From assembly GCA_900320405.1 (NCBI GenBank), contig OOHM01000002.1, forward strand, positions 159,211 to 223,210: a DNA stretch of 64,000 nucleotides, read 5' to 3'. Source of the DNA: an uncultured Pseudomonadota bacterium. Its GTDB lineage: Bacteria; Pseudomonadota; Alphaproteobacteria; Rs-D84. Shown in pieces: positions 20,590 through 26,134 of the stretch (its first letter is position 1; every line of letters begins with the position of its first letter). Both the position numbers and the translations under genes were made by a program. The notes beneath the pieces were generated by a model, which had not been told where the DNA came from, did not search any database, and saw only the letters and a list, made by a program, of their open reading frames with translations.

Positions 20590-20683
20590 TTTATTATTAT
20601 CCGTTTTTGTGATATAATAATTCTATTAAATAAATAATGCCTTGGCAATTGCTAAATTTGCCGATTTATCAAGGGGGAAACAT

Positions 20684-22696
20684 ATGCGCGTATATGTAAA
20701 TATGGAAGACAAACGTTGGAAAAAATATAAAATAGATTTTGAAAAAATCGCCAATGCGACCGTTGGGAAAAAGTATGCTGATGCGGAAGTATCCATTACA
20801 TTGGTTGATGATAAATATATCAAAAAAATCAATAAAAAATATCGCGGTATAAACAAGCCGACAAATGTTTTGTCTTTTGAATTGGGGGACAGTGTTTTGT
20901 TGGGGGATATTTTTATATCAATTGATACCGTTGCCGCCCAGGCAAAAGAAGAGGCTATAACGGTTAATGAACATACCGCGCATATGGTGGTTCATGGTAT
21001 TTTACACCTGTTGGGGTATGACCATATTAAAGATACCGATGCAGAAAAAATGGAAAAGAAAGAAATTTCAATTTTGAAAAAATTGGGATATAAAAACCCC
21101 TATGCGGCGGATTCCGGTGTATGCAGCGATGAATTGTGTTGTCCGGGTGGACACACAATCGGTGCCTTCAAAAGATTTTTTGGGTCTGGATTTGGACGAA
21201 CCGTTTTATATATGTTATGTGGTGCGATTGCATCATTGGGTTTTGCGCCATTTTATATGTGGTGGGCAACCTTTGTTGGTATTTTGGGTGCATATTTGTT
21301 GTCGGTTAACGCTTTGCCGGGACATTCGTGGTTTGGAAAATTCTTTCGCGTGTTCCCGTTCAGTGCAGTATACGCAATGTCTATGTTTTGGTGGGTGTTG
21401 AACAGTATATATGTTGTTCCGGAATTGGCAAATCAGTTTGCCGTGTGGACTGTGCCGGGAATCATAGGTATCGGCATTATCGGTGGAATGATATTTTCGA
21501 TTCCATTTTTGGCAATTTCGGGCGCACGCGCAAATCCGGCGTGCCGGCCGTTTGTTTTCGCCGCAATTTGGACTTTGGTTTTATGGATGCGTGAATGGGT
21601 GTTCACCGGTTTCCCGTGGAATCCGATTTCAAACATTGCAATAGAAAATGTGTATATTGCAAATTCTATGTCATTGTATGGGGCGTTGGGGTTAACATTT
21701 GTGATAACTGGCATAATCGCGTCCGTGGCCGAGGTTATTAAAAATCGACGCAACGGATTAAATTGGTTGGCATTGATAATATTCATTATGTTCGGTTTGG
21801 TCGGTGTATTATATGGTGTGAAAAATATTCAGGTTGCGGGAAATTCCAATGTTGCACGCACCCCGATTGTGCGGATTGTGCAACCGGCGCAAAGTGCAAC
21901 ACAAAAGGCGACGCATTCGCGTGCCGCGGCAATTCAAAATGCAAATTATAACTTACAGGTAATGGCATCTTTGGCGGGTGCGGATGGGGAACACGAATTG
22001 GTCGTGTTTCCGGAAACGGCGTACCCGTTTGTTCTTGTGCCGGGTGATAAAATGTTCTTGTCCCAGGTATTATCTAAACCTATTATCATAGGTTCAAATT
22101 ATTTTTCAGACGAAAATTTATATAATTCTTTGATAATTGCGGATGCCGATGGCACGATTTCCAATGTATACAGTAAATCGCATTTGGTTCCGTTTGGCGA
22201 ATATCGGCCATTTGGAAATTTGATTCCTACGCCCGGTATGTTAACGCCGGGAATGGGACCAGAATTGATAAAAATGAATTTGGCAGGTTCAAAGTTTGTT
22301 TTTGCGCCGGCGATTTGTTACGAGGTTATATTCACCGATTCTTTGATTCCAAATGGAAAAACGCCGGACGCAATCATAAATATTACAAATGATAATTGGT
22401 TTGGAAAAACGCCCGGAACATATCAGCATCTGGATATGGTGCGGCGTTATGCAATTGAATCGGGCGTGCCGATAATTCGTTCAAACTATTCGGGTATCAG
22501 TGCATTCGTATTATCTGATGGAAATATTATTGCAAGTATTCCAATTGGACAACCCGGTGTCATAGACGGGTCTGTTTGGGGTGCACACAAAACAATGTAT
22601 CGTCTTTTGGGTCGTGATGCGTGGATGATAATGTTGTTGATTGTGTCGTGTTTGGCATCTATATGGATGTTCGATGTGTCCCGTCCGCGTGATTAA
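20684..22696 (+). CDS. Fusion ORF: endoribonuclease YbeY (N-terminal ~150 aa) joined in frame to apolipoprotein N-acyltransferase Lnt (TM domain plus C-N hydrolase domain)
   Basis: HGILHLLGYDH Zn-binding motif of YbeY, then a Cys-rich linker (SGVCSDELCCPGGH), then Lnt-like polytopic membrane and nitrilase-superfamily regions (E...K...C triad region: FPETAYP..., ...ICYEVIF...). No stop codon between the two parts. RBS agggggaa before the ATG at 20684. Confidence 0.78.
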   Translation: MRVYVNMEDKRWKKYKIDFEKIANATVGKKYADAEVSITLVDDKYIKKINKKYRGINKPTNVLSFELGDSVLLGDIFISIDTVAAQAKEEAITVNEHTAHMVVHGILHLLGYDHIKDTDAEKMEKKEISILKKLGYKNPYAADSGVCSDELCCPGGHTIGAFKRFFGSGFGRTVLYMLCGAIASLGFAPFYMWWATFVGILGAYLLSVNALPGHSWFGKFFRVFPFSAVYAMSMFWWVLNSIYVVPELANQFAVWTVPGIIGIGIIGGMIFSIPFLAISGARANPACRPFVFAAIWTLVLWMREWVFTGFPWNPISNIAIENVYIANSMSLYGALGLTFVITGIIASVAEVIKNRRNGLNWLALIIFIMFGLVGVLYGVKNIQVAGNSNVARTPIVRIVQPAQSATQKATHSRAAAIQNANYNLQVMASLAGADGEHELVVFPETAYPFVLVPGDKMFLSQVLSKPIIIGSNYFSDENLYNSLIIADADGTISNVYSKSHLVPFGEYRPFGNLIPTPGMLTPGMGPELIKMNLAGSKFVFAPAICYEVIFTDSLIPNGKTPDAIINITNDNWFGKTPGTYQHLDMVRRYAIESGVPIIRSNYSGISAFVLSDGNIIASIPIGQPGVIDGSVWGAHKTMYRLLGRDAWMIMLLIVSCLASIWMFDVSRPRD

Positions 22697-22699
22697 AAA

Positions 22700-22903
22700 T
22701 CATTGCTGAAAATATTTCAAAACCCACACCCGAATTGCCGATGACAAATTGTCACCCAATTTTCGCGTGTCATCTATTTCCGCGATAAGCGCGGCAACAG
22801 ATGTTTTACGCCTTTGTGCGATTTTATGCAGAGCCGTGATAAATTCGTCTTCCAATGAAACACTGGTTTGATGACCGGACAAAGATACAGATATTTTTTT
22901 CAT
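22700..22903 (-). CDS. Ribbon-helix-helix (CopG/Arc-like) domain protein
   Basis: MKKISVSLSGHQTSVSLEDEFITALHKIAQRRKTSVAALIAEIDDTR... matches a conserved small RHH family common in alphaproteobacteria. An alternative GTG start at 22918 is possible. Confidence 0.55.
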   Translation of the reverse strand: MKKISVSLSGHQTSVSLEDEFITALHKIAQRRKTSVAALIAEIDDTRKLGDNLSSAIRVWVLKYFQQ

Positions 22904-22904
22904 A

Positions 22905-23354
22905 TTATATTTTTCCACCGATTAGGCAATCCAGCATCGCGCGATACGGATCGTCATATTTCCTTAAAACATTTAATTCCAAATTGTCCAACATTGTGCA
23001 ATTACCAAAAGAATCAAATGCAAACCAAAATAAATCATTTTTGCCAAAAACGGTTTTTCCCCGCAATGCAACCAAATTGGTTAATTCGTTGTTCAATTGA
23101 AAAATATTTGGAATGGGATGTTTGCCGGGTTTCCCAAATTCGGCGGGTCCAAAAATATAACCATTACCAAATTTTATTCCCCCGCACATCATATACAGTT
23201 CGGTTATAAACCTTGGTAATATGGCGGCGCGTATTTTCTGTAAGTTCACATTCACAATATTTATTTTCCCAATTGGCGTTGGTGGCGCAAATGTCGCACC
23301 ACGCGATTTTAATGTTTCAATAAATTCTTGTTGTGTCATCATATTATGTTCCAT
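22905..23354 (-). CDS. Hypothetical protein with possible SMI1/KNR4 (SUKH)-like fold
   Basis: 149 aa. The LPRFITELYMMCGGIKFGNGYIFGPAEF segment resembles the SUKH-1 core, but this is a weak assignment from memory. Translationally coupled to the upstream gene. Confidence 0.4.
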   Translation of the reverse strand: MEHNMMTQQEFIETLKSRGATFAPPTPIGKINIVNVNLQKIRAAILPRFITELYMMCGGIKFGNGYIFGPAEFGKPGKHPIPNIFQLNNELTNLVALRGKTVFGKNDLFWFAFDSFGNCTMLDNLELNVLRKYDDPYRAMLDCLIGGKI

Positions 23355-23860
23355 TATGGCGCGCGGCGGTTTGATGCGATGTTCGCCGCCATTTGGCTAA
23401 GTCTATCTGATACCGCATTTCCGCCATTCCCAGATATTGTTGAATGTATCGGCATATATATTTTTTTTACCGGATTGGGCAACCAGATGGTTTCGTTGCC
23501 ATTTTGCTCAATAATAAACCGGTCTATGTTTTGTGATTGCGGAAATGTAAAGCACATAAATAAATTTTCTGTTTCCAATTTTCCGCCCCATATCAAAGGC
23601 ACGCGAAAACGTATCGATAAATTATCCGGAATTTCACGCCCCATAAGCAAACCCATAAATTCATCTCTATCAAGATTCATCATCGCCAATTCTTGGACAG
23701 AATCGGAAAGTGAACGCATAAATTCGCGACAAATGCCACGGTATTTTTGAAACCAATCGCGTTCAACCGGGGTAATGTGTGGTCGAATCTGGGTAATCGG
23801 CAAATCCGATATTTTCAAATCATTCAAACGTTTTTCGGCCGTGGCCTGGGTCCACTGCAT
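23354..23860 (-). CDS. Hypothetical protein (168 aa)
   Basis: Open frame with start/stop overlaps to both neighbours (operon-like coupling). No recognisable motif. Confidence 0.45.
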   Translation of the reverse strand: MQWTQATAEKRLNDLKISDLPITQIRPHITPVERDWFQKYRGICREFMRSLSDSVQELAMMNLDRDEFMGLLMGREIPDNLSIRFRVPLIWGGKLETENLFMCFTFPQSQNIDRFIIEQNGNETIWLPNPVKKIYMPIHSTISGNGGNAVSDRLSQMAANIASNRRAP

Positions 23861-24777
23861 TACTGTTTTCCTATGTAATTTGTGACAGTACTGATATATG
23901 TAGATACGGCGTCAAACAATTCCGCATCGTAATCGGCGGGTTTATTGTTTGGGTGTGTTGTTATGAATTCTTGGAATTCTTGAAGTGTTGCAAATGTTGA
24001 TATTGTGTCCGAATTTTCCGGTGTGTTGGGTGCGTTTATGATGCAACCGTGCACGTTTATATCACCCGCAGAATCGCCCAGTGTATCGTCAAAAACAGTA
24101 ATCATTGTTTGTAATGCGTCTGTGATATCTGTGGTTGAAACATTTTCAGAACATATCCAAACGGTTTGGTCGTATGATAACGCAACCACCGGTTTAACCA
24201 ATTTCCCAATACGCGCACATGGTTTTACGATATATCCGTTGTCTTCTAATATTTTTGTGATTTCCGCTGTATGTGATGGTTCAGATGACGTGGGCACCAT
24301 TATTTTCGGTTTTGGTGTGGGAACAGAGCGCGTGTCGTTTGGTGTTGGTTGGTTCCGTGATAAACCGGTCGGTGACATTGGGCGCACAACATCAATGTGT
24401 GGTGCCACCGGTTTCGCTGAATTTTGATCCTGAATCGGTTGGTGTACAGGTTTCGTTGGTTTATTCAGAGTCAGAATATTTGGTGTATCCGATTGTGGTG
24501 GTGGCGGCATTTGTGATGGTTCAATAAAAAATGTTTGCATTTTTTGTCGTGCCAACAGGTACAGTCCGGTCAGACCGATTATAATCGCGACAATAAGTGA
24601 TATATAAAAATCTGGCTTTATATTCGTACGGTATGCCTGAAGTTCTGAAAGGTATGCCCAATGCGCCGCAGAAAAGATGTTGAACCCATATTTAATGTTC
24701 ATCCAAAATGTTGCGGCCAACGTGATTGTCATTAGCCACAAAAGTCCCAATAAAAGATTACTAAATTTTTTTGTCAT
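23860..24777 (-). CDS. Hypothetical membrane protein: two N-terminal TM helices, Pro/Thr-rich linker, C-terminal globular domain
   Basis: MTKKFSNLLLGLLWLMTITLAATFW... and LIVAIIIGLTGLYLLA helices, then a PPPPQSDTP...PTPKPK linker. Confidence 0.5.
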   Translation of the reverse strand: MTKKFSNLLLGLLWLMTITLAATFWMNIKYGFNIFSAAHWAYLSELQAYRTNIKPDFYISLIVAIIIGLTGLYLLARQKMQTFFIEPSQMPPPPQSDTPNILTLNKPTKPVHQPIQDQNSAKPVAPHIDVVRPMSPTGLSRNQPTPNDTRSVPTPKPKIMVPTSSEPSHTAEITKILEDNGYIVKPCARIGKLVKPVVALSYDQTVWICSENVSTTDITDALQTMITVFDDTLGDSAGDINVHGCIINAPNTPENSDTISTFATLQEFQEFITTHPNNKPADYDAELFDAVSTYISTVTNYIGKQ

Positions 24778-24820
24778 TTCGCTTAAATTATATCACATTT
24801 ATGATAAAGTAAAAAGTGTA

Positions 24821-25501
24821 ATGATAAAAACAGACACCATTTTTGATGATATTGAACCATTTAAGGTTCTGTGGGTTGATGATGCGATTATTGATACCGC
24901 GGATTTGGCGCGTATGGCGGATGTTGCAATCGATTCCAGGGTGCCGTTTGTTTCAATGCCCGCCGGTTGTGTAAAGATTTTCTGGCCGTGGATAGAAGAA
25001 AAAAAGATAAAAATATTATCCCGGTTCAATTTTAATATTGAAAAAAAACAAGATGTCGATGTGGTTATGTCTGAATTTGCAGAACATATAACCACGATGT
25101 TTAGAACCGGCGCGGCGGGCGTCCAGGTGTTTGTTAAATGTTCCCAGATTTCAGAATTTGTTGATGCGTTGCGACACATTAGAAACGATTTGTTTTTTGA
25201 TAGATATCTGTCAATCGGTATAGATTTGGACGATATGGGAAATTCGGATTGGGATGATGTGTTTAATGCACTGTCGGTGATTCGACCGGATTCTATTTTG
25301 ATTTGTGGGTGTGCAGACAAATTTAATCCAAATTCTGGTTTTGCTGGGTGCGTGTTTGATATGTTGCAAAAGTGGAATACAGATGCAGATTTGCATTTAA
25401 TGTTCGGTAAAAATATGTTGCGTGTGACCCAGGTTTTGCGTTTGGTCGAAAAAATGCGGCCGGAAATATCAAAAAATATGCGTGTGTTCGTTGAAAAATA
25501 G
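24821..25501 (+). CDS. Hypothetical protein (~226 aa)
   Basis: Open frame. I prefer the ATG at 24821 (MIKTDTIFDD), which sits just downstream of the divergent minus-strand module. No confident domain. Confidence 0.4.
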   Translation: MIKTDTIFDDIEPFKVLWVDDAIIDTADLARMADVAIDSRVPFVSMPAGCVKIFWPWIEEKKIKILSRFNFNIEKKQDVDVVMSEFAEHITTMFRTGAAGVQVFVKCSQISEFVDALRHIRNDLFFDRYLSIGIDLDDMGNSDWDDVFNALSVIRPDSILICGCADKFNPNSGFAGCVFDMLQKWNTDADLHLMFGKNMLRVTQVLRLVEKMRPEISKNMRVFVEK

Positions 25502-25504
25502 ATT

Positions 25505-26134
25505 TTATTTATGGGTCAATATCATATATTTTGTGGCGTCTGTGTGTGCCATATTCTTTTTTTGATATCGTGTTTGAATTGTTTTGTGTTCCGAATCGGA
25601 AATTACCAGATTCGAATTTTTAACCTGTTCCGTAATCCAATCAAAGTATTCCCAATGGTCGGTGCCGATTATTATTTCGCCGCCGGGTTCAAGTTTTGTA
25701 CCCAATAAATTTAAGAATTCTGCGTTTAACAACCGGCGTTTTTCGTGCCGTGCCTTGGGCCACGGGTCCGGGTGCAGTACCCATATTGTTGAAAATTGGA
25801 ATTGGTTTTTATCCAGAATCAATCGTACATCGTCCGGCCAAATGCGAATGTTTTTATATTCGGGTTTAATTTTATTGTTTTCGTCACAAATGGCCGAAAG
25901 CAGGGCGGCAACCCCGTTTACAAACGGTTCTGCGCCAATGATGATTTTGTCGGGATTATCGGTTGCCAATTCGCAGATATGTTCGCCGGCCCCGAACCCA
26001 ATTTCCAAAATATCGTTTGTTTCCGATTCGTTTGGGGCAATTGTCGGCAATATGTTTTGTATCAGAAAATTTTTGCGTTCCGATAATTTTTTGCCGTGAC
26101 GGCGGCCAAATGTTCTTATTTCTTGTTTTTCCAT
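25505..26134 (-). CDS. trmB: tRNA (guanine46-N7)-methyltransferase
   Basis: EIGFGAGEH SAM-binding motif and the conserved TrmB core (HPDPWPKARHEKRRL). Confidence 0.88.
   Translation of the reverse strand: MEKQEIRTFGRRHGKKLSERKNFLIQNILPTIAPNESETNDILEIGFGAGEHICELATDNPDKIIIGAEPFVNGVAALLSAICDENNKIKPEYKNIRIWPDDVRLILDKNQFQFSTIWVLHPDPWPKARHEKRRLLNAEFLNLLGTKLEPGGEIIIGTDHWEYFDWITEQVKNSNLVISDSEHKTIQTRYQKKNMAHTDATKYMILTHK

Follow-up and report, generated by a model that had tools for sequence, protein, structure and literature searches.

A core operon of the reduced-genome order Rs-D84 with probable ancestry in an HNH-nuclease/SUKH-immunity cassette

We analysed a 64,000-nt stretch of DNA (contig OOHM01000002.1; hereafter the window) from an uncultured alphaproteobacterium of the order Rs-D84 and describe here five open reading frames (ORFs) at positions 22700–25501, labelled P1 to P5. 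The four minus-strand genes P1-P2-P3-P4 form one operon, and the block is a vertically inherited core feature of this gut and rumen order with reduced genomes. In the order of transcription, the operon encodes a membrane protein with a tentatively assigned degenerate NERD-like domain, an HNH-fold-derived protein without the nuclease histidines, a SUKH-fold protein distantly related to the YrhA family and a ribbon-helix-helix (RHH) DNA-binding protein. We are confident of these gene identities and of the ancestry of the operon in a cassette that combined an HNH nuclease with a YrhA (SUKH)-type immunity protein. More tentatively, we suggest that P2 and P3 may now form a non-toxic, domesticated complex.

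P1 (23860–24777, minus strand, 305 aa), P2 (23354–23860, minus strand, 168 aa), P3 (22905–23354, minus strand, ORF of 149 aa) and P4 (22700–22903, minus strand, 67 aa) are packed with hardly a nucleotide between them. A first-pass annotation, made from the letters of the sequence, had listed these four co-directional ORFs and had placed them, together with the opposite-strand ORF P5 (24821–25501, plus strand, 226 aa), between lnt and trmB; both observations are correct. It had also described the junctions as ATGA-type overlaps, which they are not: P1 and P2 share a single nucleotide of stop and start codon in CAG TAATG CAG, as do P2 and P3 in CCA TAATG GAA, and P3 and P4 are separated by 1 nt. 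Of 89 related loci, 72 have the P1/P2 overlap, and the P2–P3 spacing ranges from -4 to +41 nt. The P2/P3 overlap requires the 149-aa start of P3, which is missing in most homologues, where the gap is 0–20 nt; because most P3 homologues have 144 aa, the start of P3 in the window is probably an ATG located 12–15 nt downstream (23342 or 23339), which would give a protein of 144–145 aa. The 305-aa start of P1 coincides with the conserved start in an alignment of 29 orthologues. A promoter and terminator scan inside the operon returned nothing above chance, and an Rfam search of the 20–28 kb portion of the window detected no RNA family.

The arrangement is constant throughout the order. In a scan of one genome per species, a P2 relative was found to be encoded in 199 species, and 80 species loci were fetched for comparison of gene order. 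Wherever the contig reaches, all 80 Rs-D84 loci have P5 divergent from P1-P2-P3-P4, with the ybeY/lnt gene converging on P4 from the other side, and the absences of individual genes coincide only with contig ends. The same arrangement is found in more distant metagenome-assembled genomes (MAGs), among them one labelled Rickettsiales (L092). Exact copies of P2 are present on rumen and gut metagenome contigs of up to 916 kb, strain-level contigs share the arrangement, and the homologues of P2 carry the labels of Candidatus Enterousia, Alphaproteobacteria or Rickettsiales MAGs. The genomes of Rs-D84, the order of Candidatus Enterousia and its relatives, are mostly smaller than 1 Mb and lack most biosynthetic pathways, and dependence on other cells is presumed for these bacteria (PMC12306168).

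Proteins of the fetched loci share 56–89% identity with the window protein for P2, 42–82% for P3, 54–82% for P4, 28–69% for P1 and 28–72% for P5, compared to 52–82% for Lnt and 60–81% for TrmB. The ratio of nonsynonymous to synonymous substitution rates (dN/dS), estimated by the Nei–Gojobori method among the closer genomes, is 0.094 for P2, 0.157 for P3, 0.159 for P4, 0.216 for P1 and 0.26 for P5, next to 0.095 for GltX, 0.136 for TrmB and 0.139 for Lnt, all of them rough values because dS is 1.3–1.7 and near saturation. P2 is the slowest-evolving gene of the block, with a ratio close to that of gltX, a housekeeping gene for an aminoacyl-tRNA synthetase.

These data contradict the initial proposal of an accessory locus. 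The comparison of related genomes, which the first-pass annotation had itself suggested as a check, revealed conserved synteny across the order rather than presence in some genomes and absence from others, and selection on the block is purifying at the level of housekeeping genes. The block had also been described as AT-rich. Its GC content is indeed slightly lower than that of the window (40.6% versus 43.3%), but the difference is marginal: per-gene GC z-scores run from -0.3 (P2) to -2.2 (P3) and stay within the range of the other genes of the window, which span 37.6–52.1% GC, and neither GC nor GC at third codon positions (GC3) reveals a clear anomaly, so there is no compositional sign of foreign origin. 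Horizontal acquisition of the block was considered and rejected on GC/GC3 and synteny.

P2 has no match in Pfam, NCBIfam, PHROGs or PADLOC, and a profile search of PDB sequences gave none that could be used. In Rs-D84 it is a bare domain of uniform length (166–170 aa), 56–94% identical across the order, with the conserved core IPDNLSIRFRxPLxWGGKxxxxNLFMCxTFPxSQNxDRFIxEQ and the conserved tail PNPxKKIYxPxH....GGNAxxDRLxQ. An AlphaFold2 model of P2 (pLDDT 86.9, pTM 0.80) places a strand at residues 81–85, a second strand at 100–104 and a helix at 105–117, which is a beta-beta-alpha arrangement (core 81–117). HNH domains are enriched among the weak Foldseek matches of this model, which include Cas8-HNH, Gme HNH, the HNH domain of ZRANB3 and many phage HNH endonucleases.

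The relationship becomes visible through intermediates. An exhaustive HMMER search with the P2 profile retrieved 74 relatives. The distant ones are proteins of 180–420 aa from uncultured Alphaproteobacteria, usually built of an MWDWSG start, a low-complexity (disordered) region rich in proline and glutamine, and a C-terminal P2-like domain. Histidine-bearing members have the motif PENFNVH[LIM]KIPxxYGGxxxFSNLxLIQTHPxHxxIHKFI and a basic tail ending in ...KSMPGR. In hhalign comparisons, the P2 family aligns with this histidine-bearing family with a probability of 98.8% (E 7.7e-17), and the histidine-bearing profile in turn aligns with an HNH endonuclease of IncHI2 plasmids with a probability of 99.1% (E 1.7e-18) over 125 columns, a similarity that runs past the beta-beta-alpha core into the preceding helices. 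Compared directly with the plasmid HNH protein, the P2 profile gives a probability of 78.8% (E 1.6e-5). The plasmid protein itself passes the Pfam HNH cut-off (24.7 bits versus 21.4), and among PDB sequences the histidine-bearing profile best matches the pyocin AP41 DNase, at its H-N-H motif (E 0.13). Together, the chain of profiles and the predicted topology identify P2 as a derivative of the HNH fold.

What P2 does not have is the HNH active site. With roles assigned to the two histidines of the dyad as in PMC3113570, the metal ligand (first histidine) of the plasmid enzyme corresponds to Arg84 of P2 and the general base (second histidine) to Phe85. The histidine in the helix of the plasmid enzyme is replaced by Ser109, and a second helix histidine, which occurs in the alphaproteobacterial relatives and is absent from the plasmid enzyme, by Asp113. 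Of the HNH signature P2 keeps only the asparagine (Asn99) and the GG turn. Across the family, the replacement residues vary little or not at all (Phe85 is nearly invariant), and Arg84 and Asp113 could form a salt bridge in place of the metal site. Judged by this loss of both the dyad and the helix histidines, P2 would be unable to act as a conventional HNH nuclease. Tox-REHH (bioRxiv 10.64898/2026.09.22.753552) was weighed as a family for P2 and retained as a conceptual precedent only.

For P3, the fold is evident from its predicted structure. The AlphaFold2 model (pLDDT 95.1, pTM 0.89) has as its top four Foldseek matches in PDB the structures 2PRV (Bacillus subtilis YobK, the best), 3D5P, 2ICG and 2PAG, all SUKH/SMI1-KNR4 proteins, at probability 1.00, TM-scores of 0.58–0.68 and E values from 2.2e-4 to 1.5e-2. 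The SUKH superfamily is defined by five structures, these four among them, and immunity to HNH toxins is a well-established role of its members (Zhang, Iyer and Aravind 2011, PMC3113570). At the sequence level the window P3 has no Pfam match and no usable match in a profile search of PDB sequences; it scores 22.4 bits (E 8.9e-5) against the NCBIfam YrhA family NF038335, below the cut-off of 55 bits, and just one of 30 P3 orthologues reaches E 0.0019 against Pfam SMI1_KNR4. The early suggestion that P3 is SUKH-like is thus right at the level of the fold, with the curated sequence cut-offs not reached. Homologues of P3 from L097 and from the VirD4-linked clusters described below do pass NF038335, with 57–77 bits. 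An hhalign comparison of the P3 profile with a single plasmid YrhA sequence gave a probability of 0.5%, but the NCBIfam YrhA model does connect the two. P3 is a SUKH-fold protein and a divergent relative of the YrhA family. A P3-like gene follows every P2-like gene that we examined.

The same pairing is found on plasmids. In a tblastn search of plasmids with one of the histidine-bearing proteins, genes annotated as 'HNH endonuclease' were retrieved from 459 plasmids, 434 of them conjugative, and on these plasmids the HNH gene is followed by a gene for a 'YrhA family protein', which ties both P2 and P3 to a known type of HNH/SUKH cassette. The yhhZ-yrhA locus of Escherichia coli K-12 is, we assume, a cassette of the same kind. 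The plasmid hosts are mostly Enterobacter, Salmonella and Klebsiella, and the HNH/YrhA pair adjoins IncHI transfer genes (a gene for a traG N-terminal domain protein, and trhH), as in L098:6815-7906 (Salmonella IncHI2 plasmid pMS114_1) and L099:6407-7960.

Outside Rs-D84, the relatives in other gut Alphaproteobacteria occur in a different setting. Three MAG loci (L091, L093 and L095) contain a VirD4/TraG gene, then a histidine-bearing HNH-like gene and then a gene for a protein of 144–148 aa that matches the P3 profile and passes the YrhA cut-off. Likewise, each of the 14 metagenome loci whose sequence extends upstream has VirD4 immediately before the HNH-like gene, which brings the VirD4-linked loci to 17. 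Wherever the sequence extends far enough, VirD4 is preceded by one or two P1-like genes, whose products have two transmembrane segments, a linker and a NERD-like domain, so that the cluster reads NERD-like protein(s), VirD4, HNH-like protein, YrhA-like protein. By precomputed Pfam assignments, no other genes of a type IV secretion system (VirB) flank these clusters, which have housekeeping genes as neighbours. Clusters with this orphan VirD4 were seen in L091, L093, L095 and L100–L115 (e.g., L101:1783-8996), and their VirD4 proteins are 60–85% identical across many MAGs; a database search with VirD4 returned matches at >=60% identity from Alphaproteobacteria only.

A form without the coupling protein, consisting of a P1-like gene, a short histidine-less P2-like gene, a P3-like gene and an RHH_4 gene, recurs in two other lineages (L096 and L097) in unrelated neighbourhoods. 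This recurrence indicates that P1, P2, P3 and the RHH_4 protein are a functional unit and not chance neighbours. Across the family, the coupling protein, the disordered N-terminus, the basic tail and the metal-site histidines either occur together or are jointly missing. A tblastn search found no VirD4 gene in the 64-kb window, nor within 6 kb of the module in the Rs-D84 loci.

P1 was described at first sight as a membrane protein with a Pro-rich stalk, and this description holds. Hydropathy reveals two hydrophobic segments, at residues ~8–26 and ~57–75, connected by a loop in which the motif GF..FS..HW.Y...Q is invariant. Just after the second segment there is a basic stretch, which by the positive-inside rule would put the C-terminus in the cytoplasm. 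The linker that comes next has 86 residues, 23% of them proline, and carries an invariant RP motif. The C-terminal domain of ~130 aa is tentatively assigned as a degenerate NERD-like domain. The window P1 itself has no Pfam match, NERD (PF08378, threshold 22.1 bits) included, and three of its relatives have NERD matches that stay below the threshold while covering nearly the full model, with E values of 0.0068 (17.3 bits), 0.016 and 0.12. The segment G..W.......SPV, typical of NERD, is kept in distant P1 members and deleted in most of those from Rs-D84. The alignment of 29 orthologues contains no invariant set of acidic and lysine residues of the PD-(D/E)xK catalytic type. The idea that P1 could be a remnant of VirD4 was rejected, the P1 profile giving E values of 0.8–1.3 against VirD4.

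P4 was correctly recognised from the outset as an RHH protein: it matches Pfam RHH_4 (PF13467) with 81.1 bits (cut-off 25; E 6e-23), residues 7–70 aligning with positions 2–67 of the 67-position model. In all Rs-D84 loci the SUKH gene is followed by an RHH_4 gene, and so it is in three contexts unrelated to one another (L092, L096 and L097). A candidate site of action of P4 is the 43-nt control region (24778–24820) between the divergent start codons of P1 and P5, whose length (43–44 nt) and most of whose sequence are conserved in 22 Rs-D84 species. It contains an extended -10 element, TGTGATATAAT, that ends 9 nt before the ATG of P1, a position which suggests that the leader of the P1 mRNA is very short or absent. 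It also contains an imperfect 16-bp palindrome, TATCATAAATGTGATA (24791–24806), which occurs exactly once in the window and is a candidate operator for the RHH_4 protein. P4 would then be an autoregulator, and P5 would be co-regulated from the shared control region.

Putting these observations together, we tentatively favour the following scenario. An ancestral cassette of an HNH nuclease and a YrhA (SUKH) immunity protein would have given rise to the Rs-D84 operon by loss of the coupling-protein gene, addition of the RHH_4 regulator and trimming of the HNH-derived protein to its bare domain; the histidine-less form without coupling protein is assumed here to be the derived one. P2 would be a pseudo-nuclease that stays bound to P3 in a stable complex, by way of the interface that toxin and immunity protein once shared. 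This complex would work together with P1 on the cytoplasmic side of the inner membrane, where the degenerate NERD-like domain of P1 would hang from its Pro-rich tether of ~90 residues, and P4 would use the conserved palindrome to repress the 43-bp divergent promoter that the operon shares with P5. The complex would probably bind or handle nucleic acid or a partner protein, as opposed to cleaving or killing. With the catalytic and metal-binding histidines of HNH lost from P2, a classical nuclease toxin/immunity or toxin-antitoxin function is unlikely. The first-pass suggestion of an immunity or toxin-antitoxin-like locus therefore survives with respect to ancestry, the HNH family being paired with YrhA/SUKH, and is unlikely to hold for the present function.

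Several points weigh against this scenario. None of the Foldseek matches of the P2 model in PDB and BFVD is individually significant (best E 0.29–0.35), and the NERD assignment of P1 comes from sub-threshold matches in relatives only. The VirD4-linked relatives have leucine, isoleucine or methionine at the position of the general base while keeping three putative metal ligands, which makes the ancestral activity of the alphaproteobacterial branch uncertain. The near-saturated dS limits the weight that the slow evolution of P2 can bear. Finally, the invariant residues R84, R86, N99, D113, H139, N148, D152 and R153 of P2 may serve some other catalytic or toxic mechanism.

This last point leads to an alternative that we consider unlikely, namely that the operon is a working toxin-immunity or addiction module, in which P2 is toxic by a mechanism other than that of HNH nucleases (for example a new active site or tight binding to DNA), P3 counteracts it, P4 represses the operon, and loss is lethal. 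The succession of HNH-family, SUKH and RHH genes and the tight TAATG junction do resemble known systems, the pairing of P2-like with P3-like proteins is universal, the homologous plasmid pair is a typical HNH/YrhA cassette of conjugative plasmids, and immunity to HNH toxins is a known role of SUKH proteins (PMC3113570). Yet all HNH histidines are gone, and the position of the locus is fixed across the order with no sign of mobility or of variation in presence and absence. Conflict toxins normally diversify, and vertically inherited chromosomal ones usually decay, whereas P2 is the slowest gene of the block. It would also have persisted in genomes of less than 1 Mb that are losing the genes they can do without (PMC12306168). 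Scans of all five proteins with the PADLOC and PHROGs libraries produced nothing beyond noise.

A second alternative, which we regard as quite improbable, treats P2 as an exported effector that acts on a partner or host cell, with P3 as its chaperone or immunity protein, P1 as a membrane adaptor and a coupling protein or secretion system encoded elsewhere in the genome. It draws on the related Alphaproteobacteria, which always place the homologous gene directly downstream of VirD4 and whose proteins have the disordered N-terminus and the basic tail that are frequent in translocated substrates; the presumed dependence of Rs-D84 on other cells (PMC12306168) would fit as well. In Rs-D84 itself, VirD4 was not found in the window or close to the module, and P2 has none of the features that accompany linkage to the coupling protein, be it the disordered N-terminus, the C-terminal tail or the metal-site histidines. 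Neither P2 nor P3 has a signal peptide or a hydrophobic segment, and even in the relatives no further secretion genes adjoin the cluster. It is highly improbable that genome compaction alone has kept unrelated neighbours together: genes are dense in these genomes, many unrelated housekeeping genes are likewise syntenic in the clade and P5 is co-conserved only within Rs-D84 and a close relative, but the P1-P2-P3-RHH_4 order recurs in the different neighbourhoods of L096 and L097, the first three gene types stand together around VirD4 in 17 further loci, and the P1/P2 stop-start overlap has been preserved in most related loci.

A bolder extension of the domesticated-complex scenario, speculative and in our judgement rather improbable, would see in the cluster of NERD-like, orphan VirD4, HNH-fold and SUKH proteins a minimal apparatus, not described before, with which gut Alphaproteobacteria translocate or handle DNA or protein, and in its Rs-D84 derivative a toxin-immunity pair wholly turned into an essential core component of obligate symbionts with genomes below 1 Mb. 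If that were true, the derivative might, for example, acquire or handle nucleic acid from a partner cell.

Among known systems, the closest is the HNH/YrhA pair of enterobacterial chromosomes and IncHI2 plasmids (e.g., WP_223229324.1 and WP_052894275.1 on pMS114_1). As in the window, a gene of the HNH family is followed by a YrhA/SUKH gene, and both partners are homologous to P2 and P3 through chains of profiles. The plasmid HNH protein keeps the HH dyad and passes Pfam HNH, whereas in P2 the dyad is replaced by R84/F85 and the helix histidines are missing. The plasmid pair is accessory, carried for the most part on conjugative plasmids (434 of the 459), and has no P1-like or RHH_4 partner genes, in contrast to the window pair, which is chromosomal and fixed order-wide.

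In the polymorphic toxins that combine a colicin/pyocin-type DNase HNH domain with SUKH (e.g., B. subtilis YobL-YobK, PMC3113570), the nuclease-family gene also lies directly upstream of the SUKH gene; YobK (2PRV) is the best structural match of P3, and the HNH motif of pyocin AP41 aligns with the histidine-bearing relatives of P2. P2 differs from these toxins in that it has no N-terminal trafficking domain, no strain-level polymorphism, no cassette arrays and no catalytic or metal-binding histidines, and selection on it is purifying instead of diversifying. Re-use of the SUKH fold at the membrane has a precedent in Syd of E. coli, a SecY-interacting SUKH-2 protein with a non-immunity function in a membrane context (PMC3113570). 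The top structural matches of P3 do not include Syd, which has no HNH-derived partner gene, and the likeness is at the level of the superfamily.

The VirD4-linked relatives recall two further systems, the X-Tfe/X-Tfi pairs of Xanthomonadales and the bep genes of Bartonella, in which effector genes of type IV secretion systems lie beside virD4 together with cognate immunity genes. The HNH-like gene of the relatives likewise comes directly after VirD4 and is followed by an immunity-type gene. The window module differs in having no coupling protein in or near it, no XVIPCD or BID domain was detected, and the cluster of the relatives differs in having NERD-like membrane proteins and no adjacent VirB genes. 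With type II toxin-antitoxin systems that employ RHH regulators, the operon shares a small RHH gene in a tight operon and a promoter palindrome, but here the RHH gene is the last and not the first, it belongs to the RHH_4 family, and the locus shows neither mobility nor variation.

Taken singly, HNH/SUKH pairs, RHH regulators and NERD domains have been described already, and HNH/SUKH toxin-immunity pairs are normally mobile, polymorphic conflict genes. What appears to be undescribed is the fixation of such a pair, with complete loss of its nuclease histidines, as a slow-evolving core operon of a reduced-genome order. The constant partnership of the pair with a NERD-like membrane protein and the strictly conserved VirD4 cluster of related gut Alphaproteobacteria likewise appear to be new. 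In the literature on Enterousia or on RHH_4, we found no mention of any of these three features. If the favoured scenario holds, the Rs-D84 operon would offer a clean natural example of a conflict module domesticated to a core function, and P2 and P3 a concrete pair for probing what pseudo-nucleases do; the orphan-VirD4 cluster may hint at how uncultured gut Alphaproteobacteria interact with other cells. Three families of 'hypothetical' proteins from hundreds of gut and rumen MAGs can now be given provisional labels: degenerate NERD-like membrane protein, pseudo-HNH protein and divergent YrhA/SUKH protein.

P5, transcribed divergently from the operon, is a conserved protein of ~225 aa. It has the invariant residues W55, W57, E59, G97, A98, F125, F126 and R207, and no match was found in Pfam (with all orthologues scanned), NCBIfam, PHROGs, PADLOC or PDB sequences. 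P5 is present in all Rs-D84 loci where the contig reaches, but its co-conservation with the operon is limited to Rs-D84 and L092, and it does not adjoin the module in L096 and L097, which leaves its membership in the system uncertain. A by-eye suspicion that P5 could be a DeoC-like TIM barrel was dropped. On the far side of P5 lies trmB (25505–26134, minus strand).

On the P4 side, the operon is flanked by a ybeY-lnt fusion gene (20642–22696, plus strand). The two genes are convergent, and their 3' ends are 3 nt apart in the window (22696–22700), which leaves no space for terminators between them; in some relatives (L009, L092 and L096) the called genes overlap at their 3' ends. The cumulative GC skew climbs nearly monotonically over the whole window (1–64000), so that the plus strand is probably the leading strand and P1-P4 would be transcribed against the direction of replication. 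The fusion gene joins the RNase YbeY and the apolipoprotein N-acyltransferase Lnt in one ORF of 670–684 aa with the Pfam domains YbeY, LNT_N and CN_hydrolase, and it is present in all related loci examined, including the distant L092 (596 aa). The fusion couples a nuclease of rRNA maturation with a membrane enzyme of lipoprotein maturation, which is an unusual combination.

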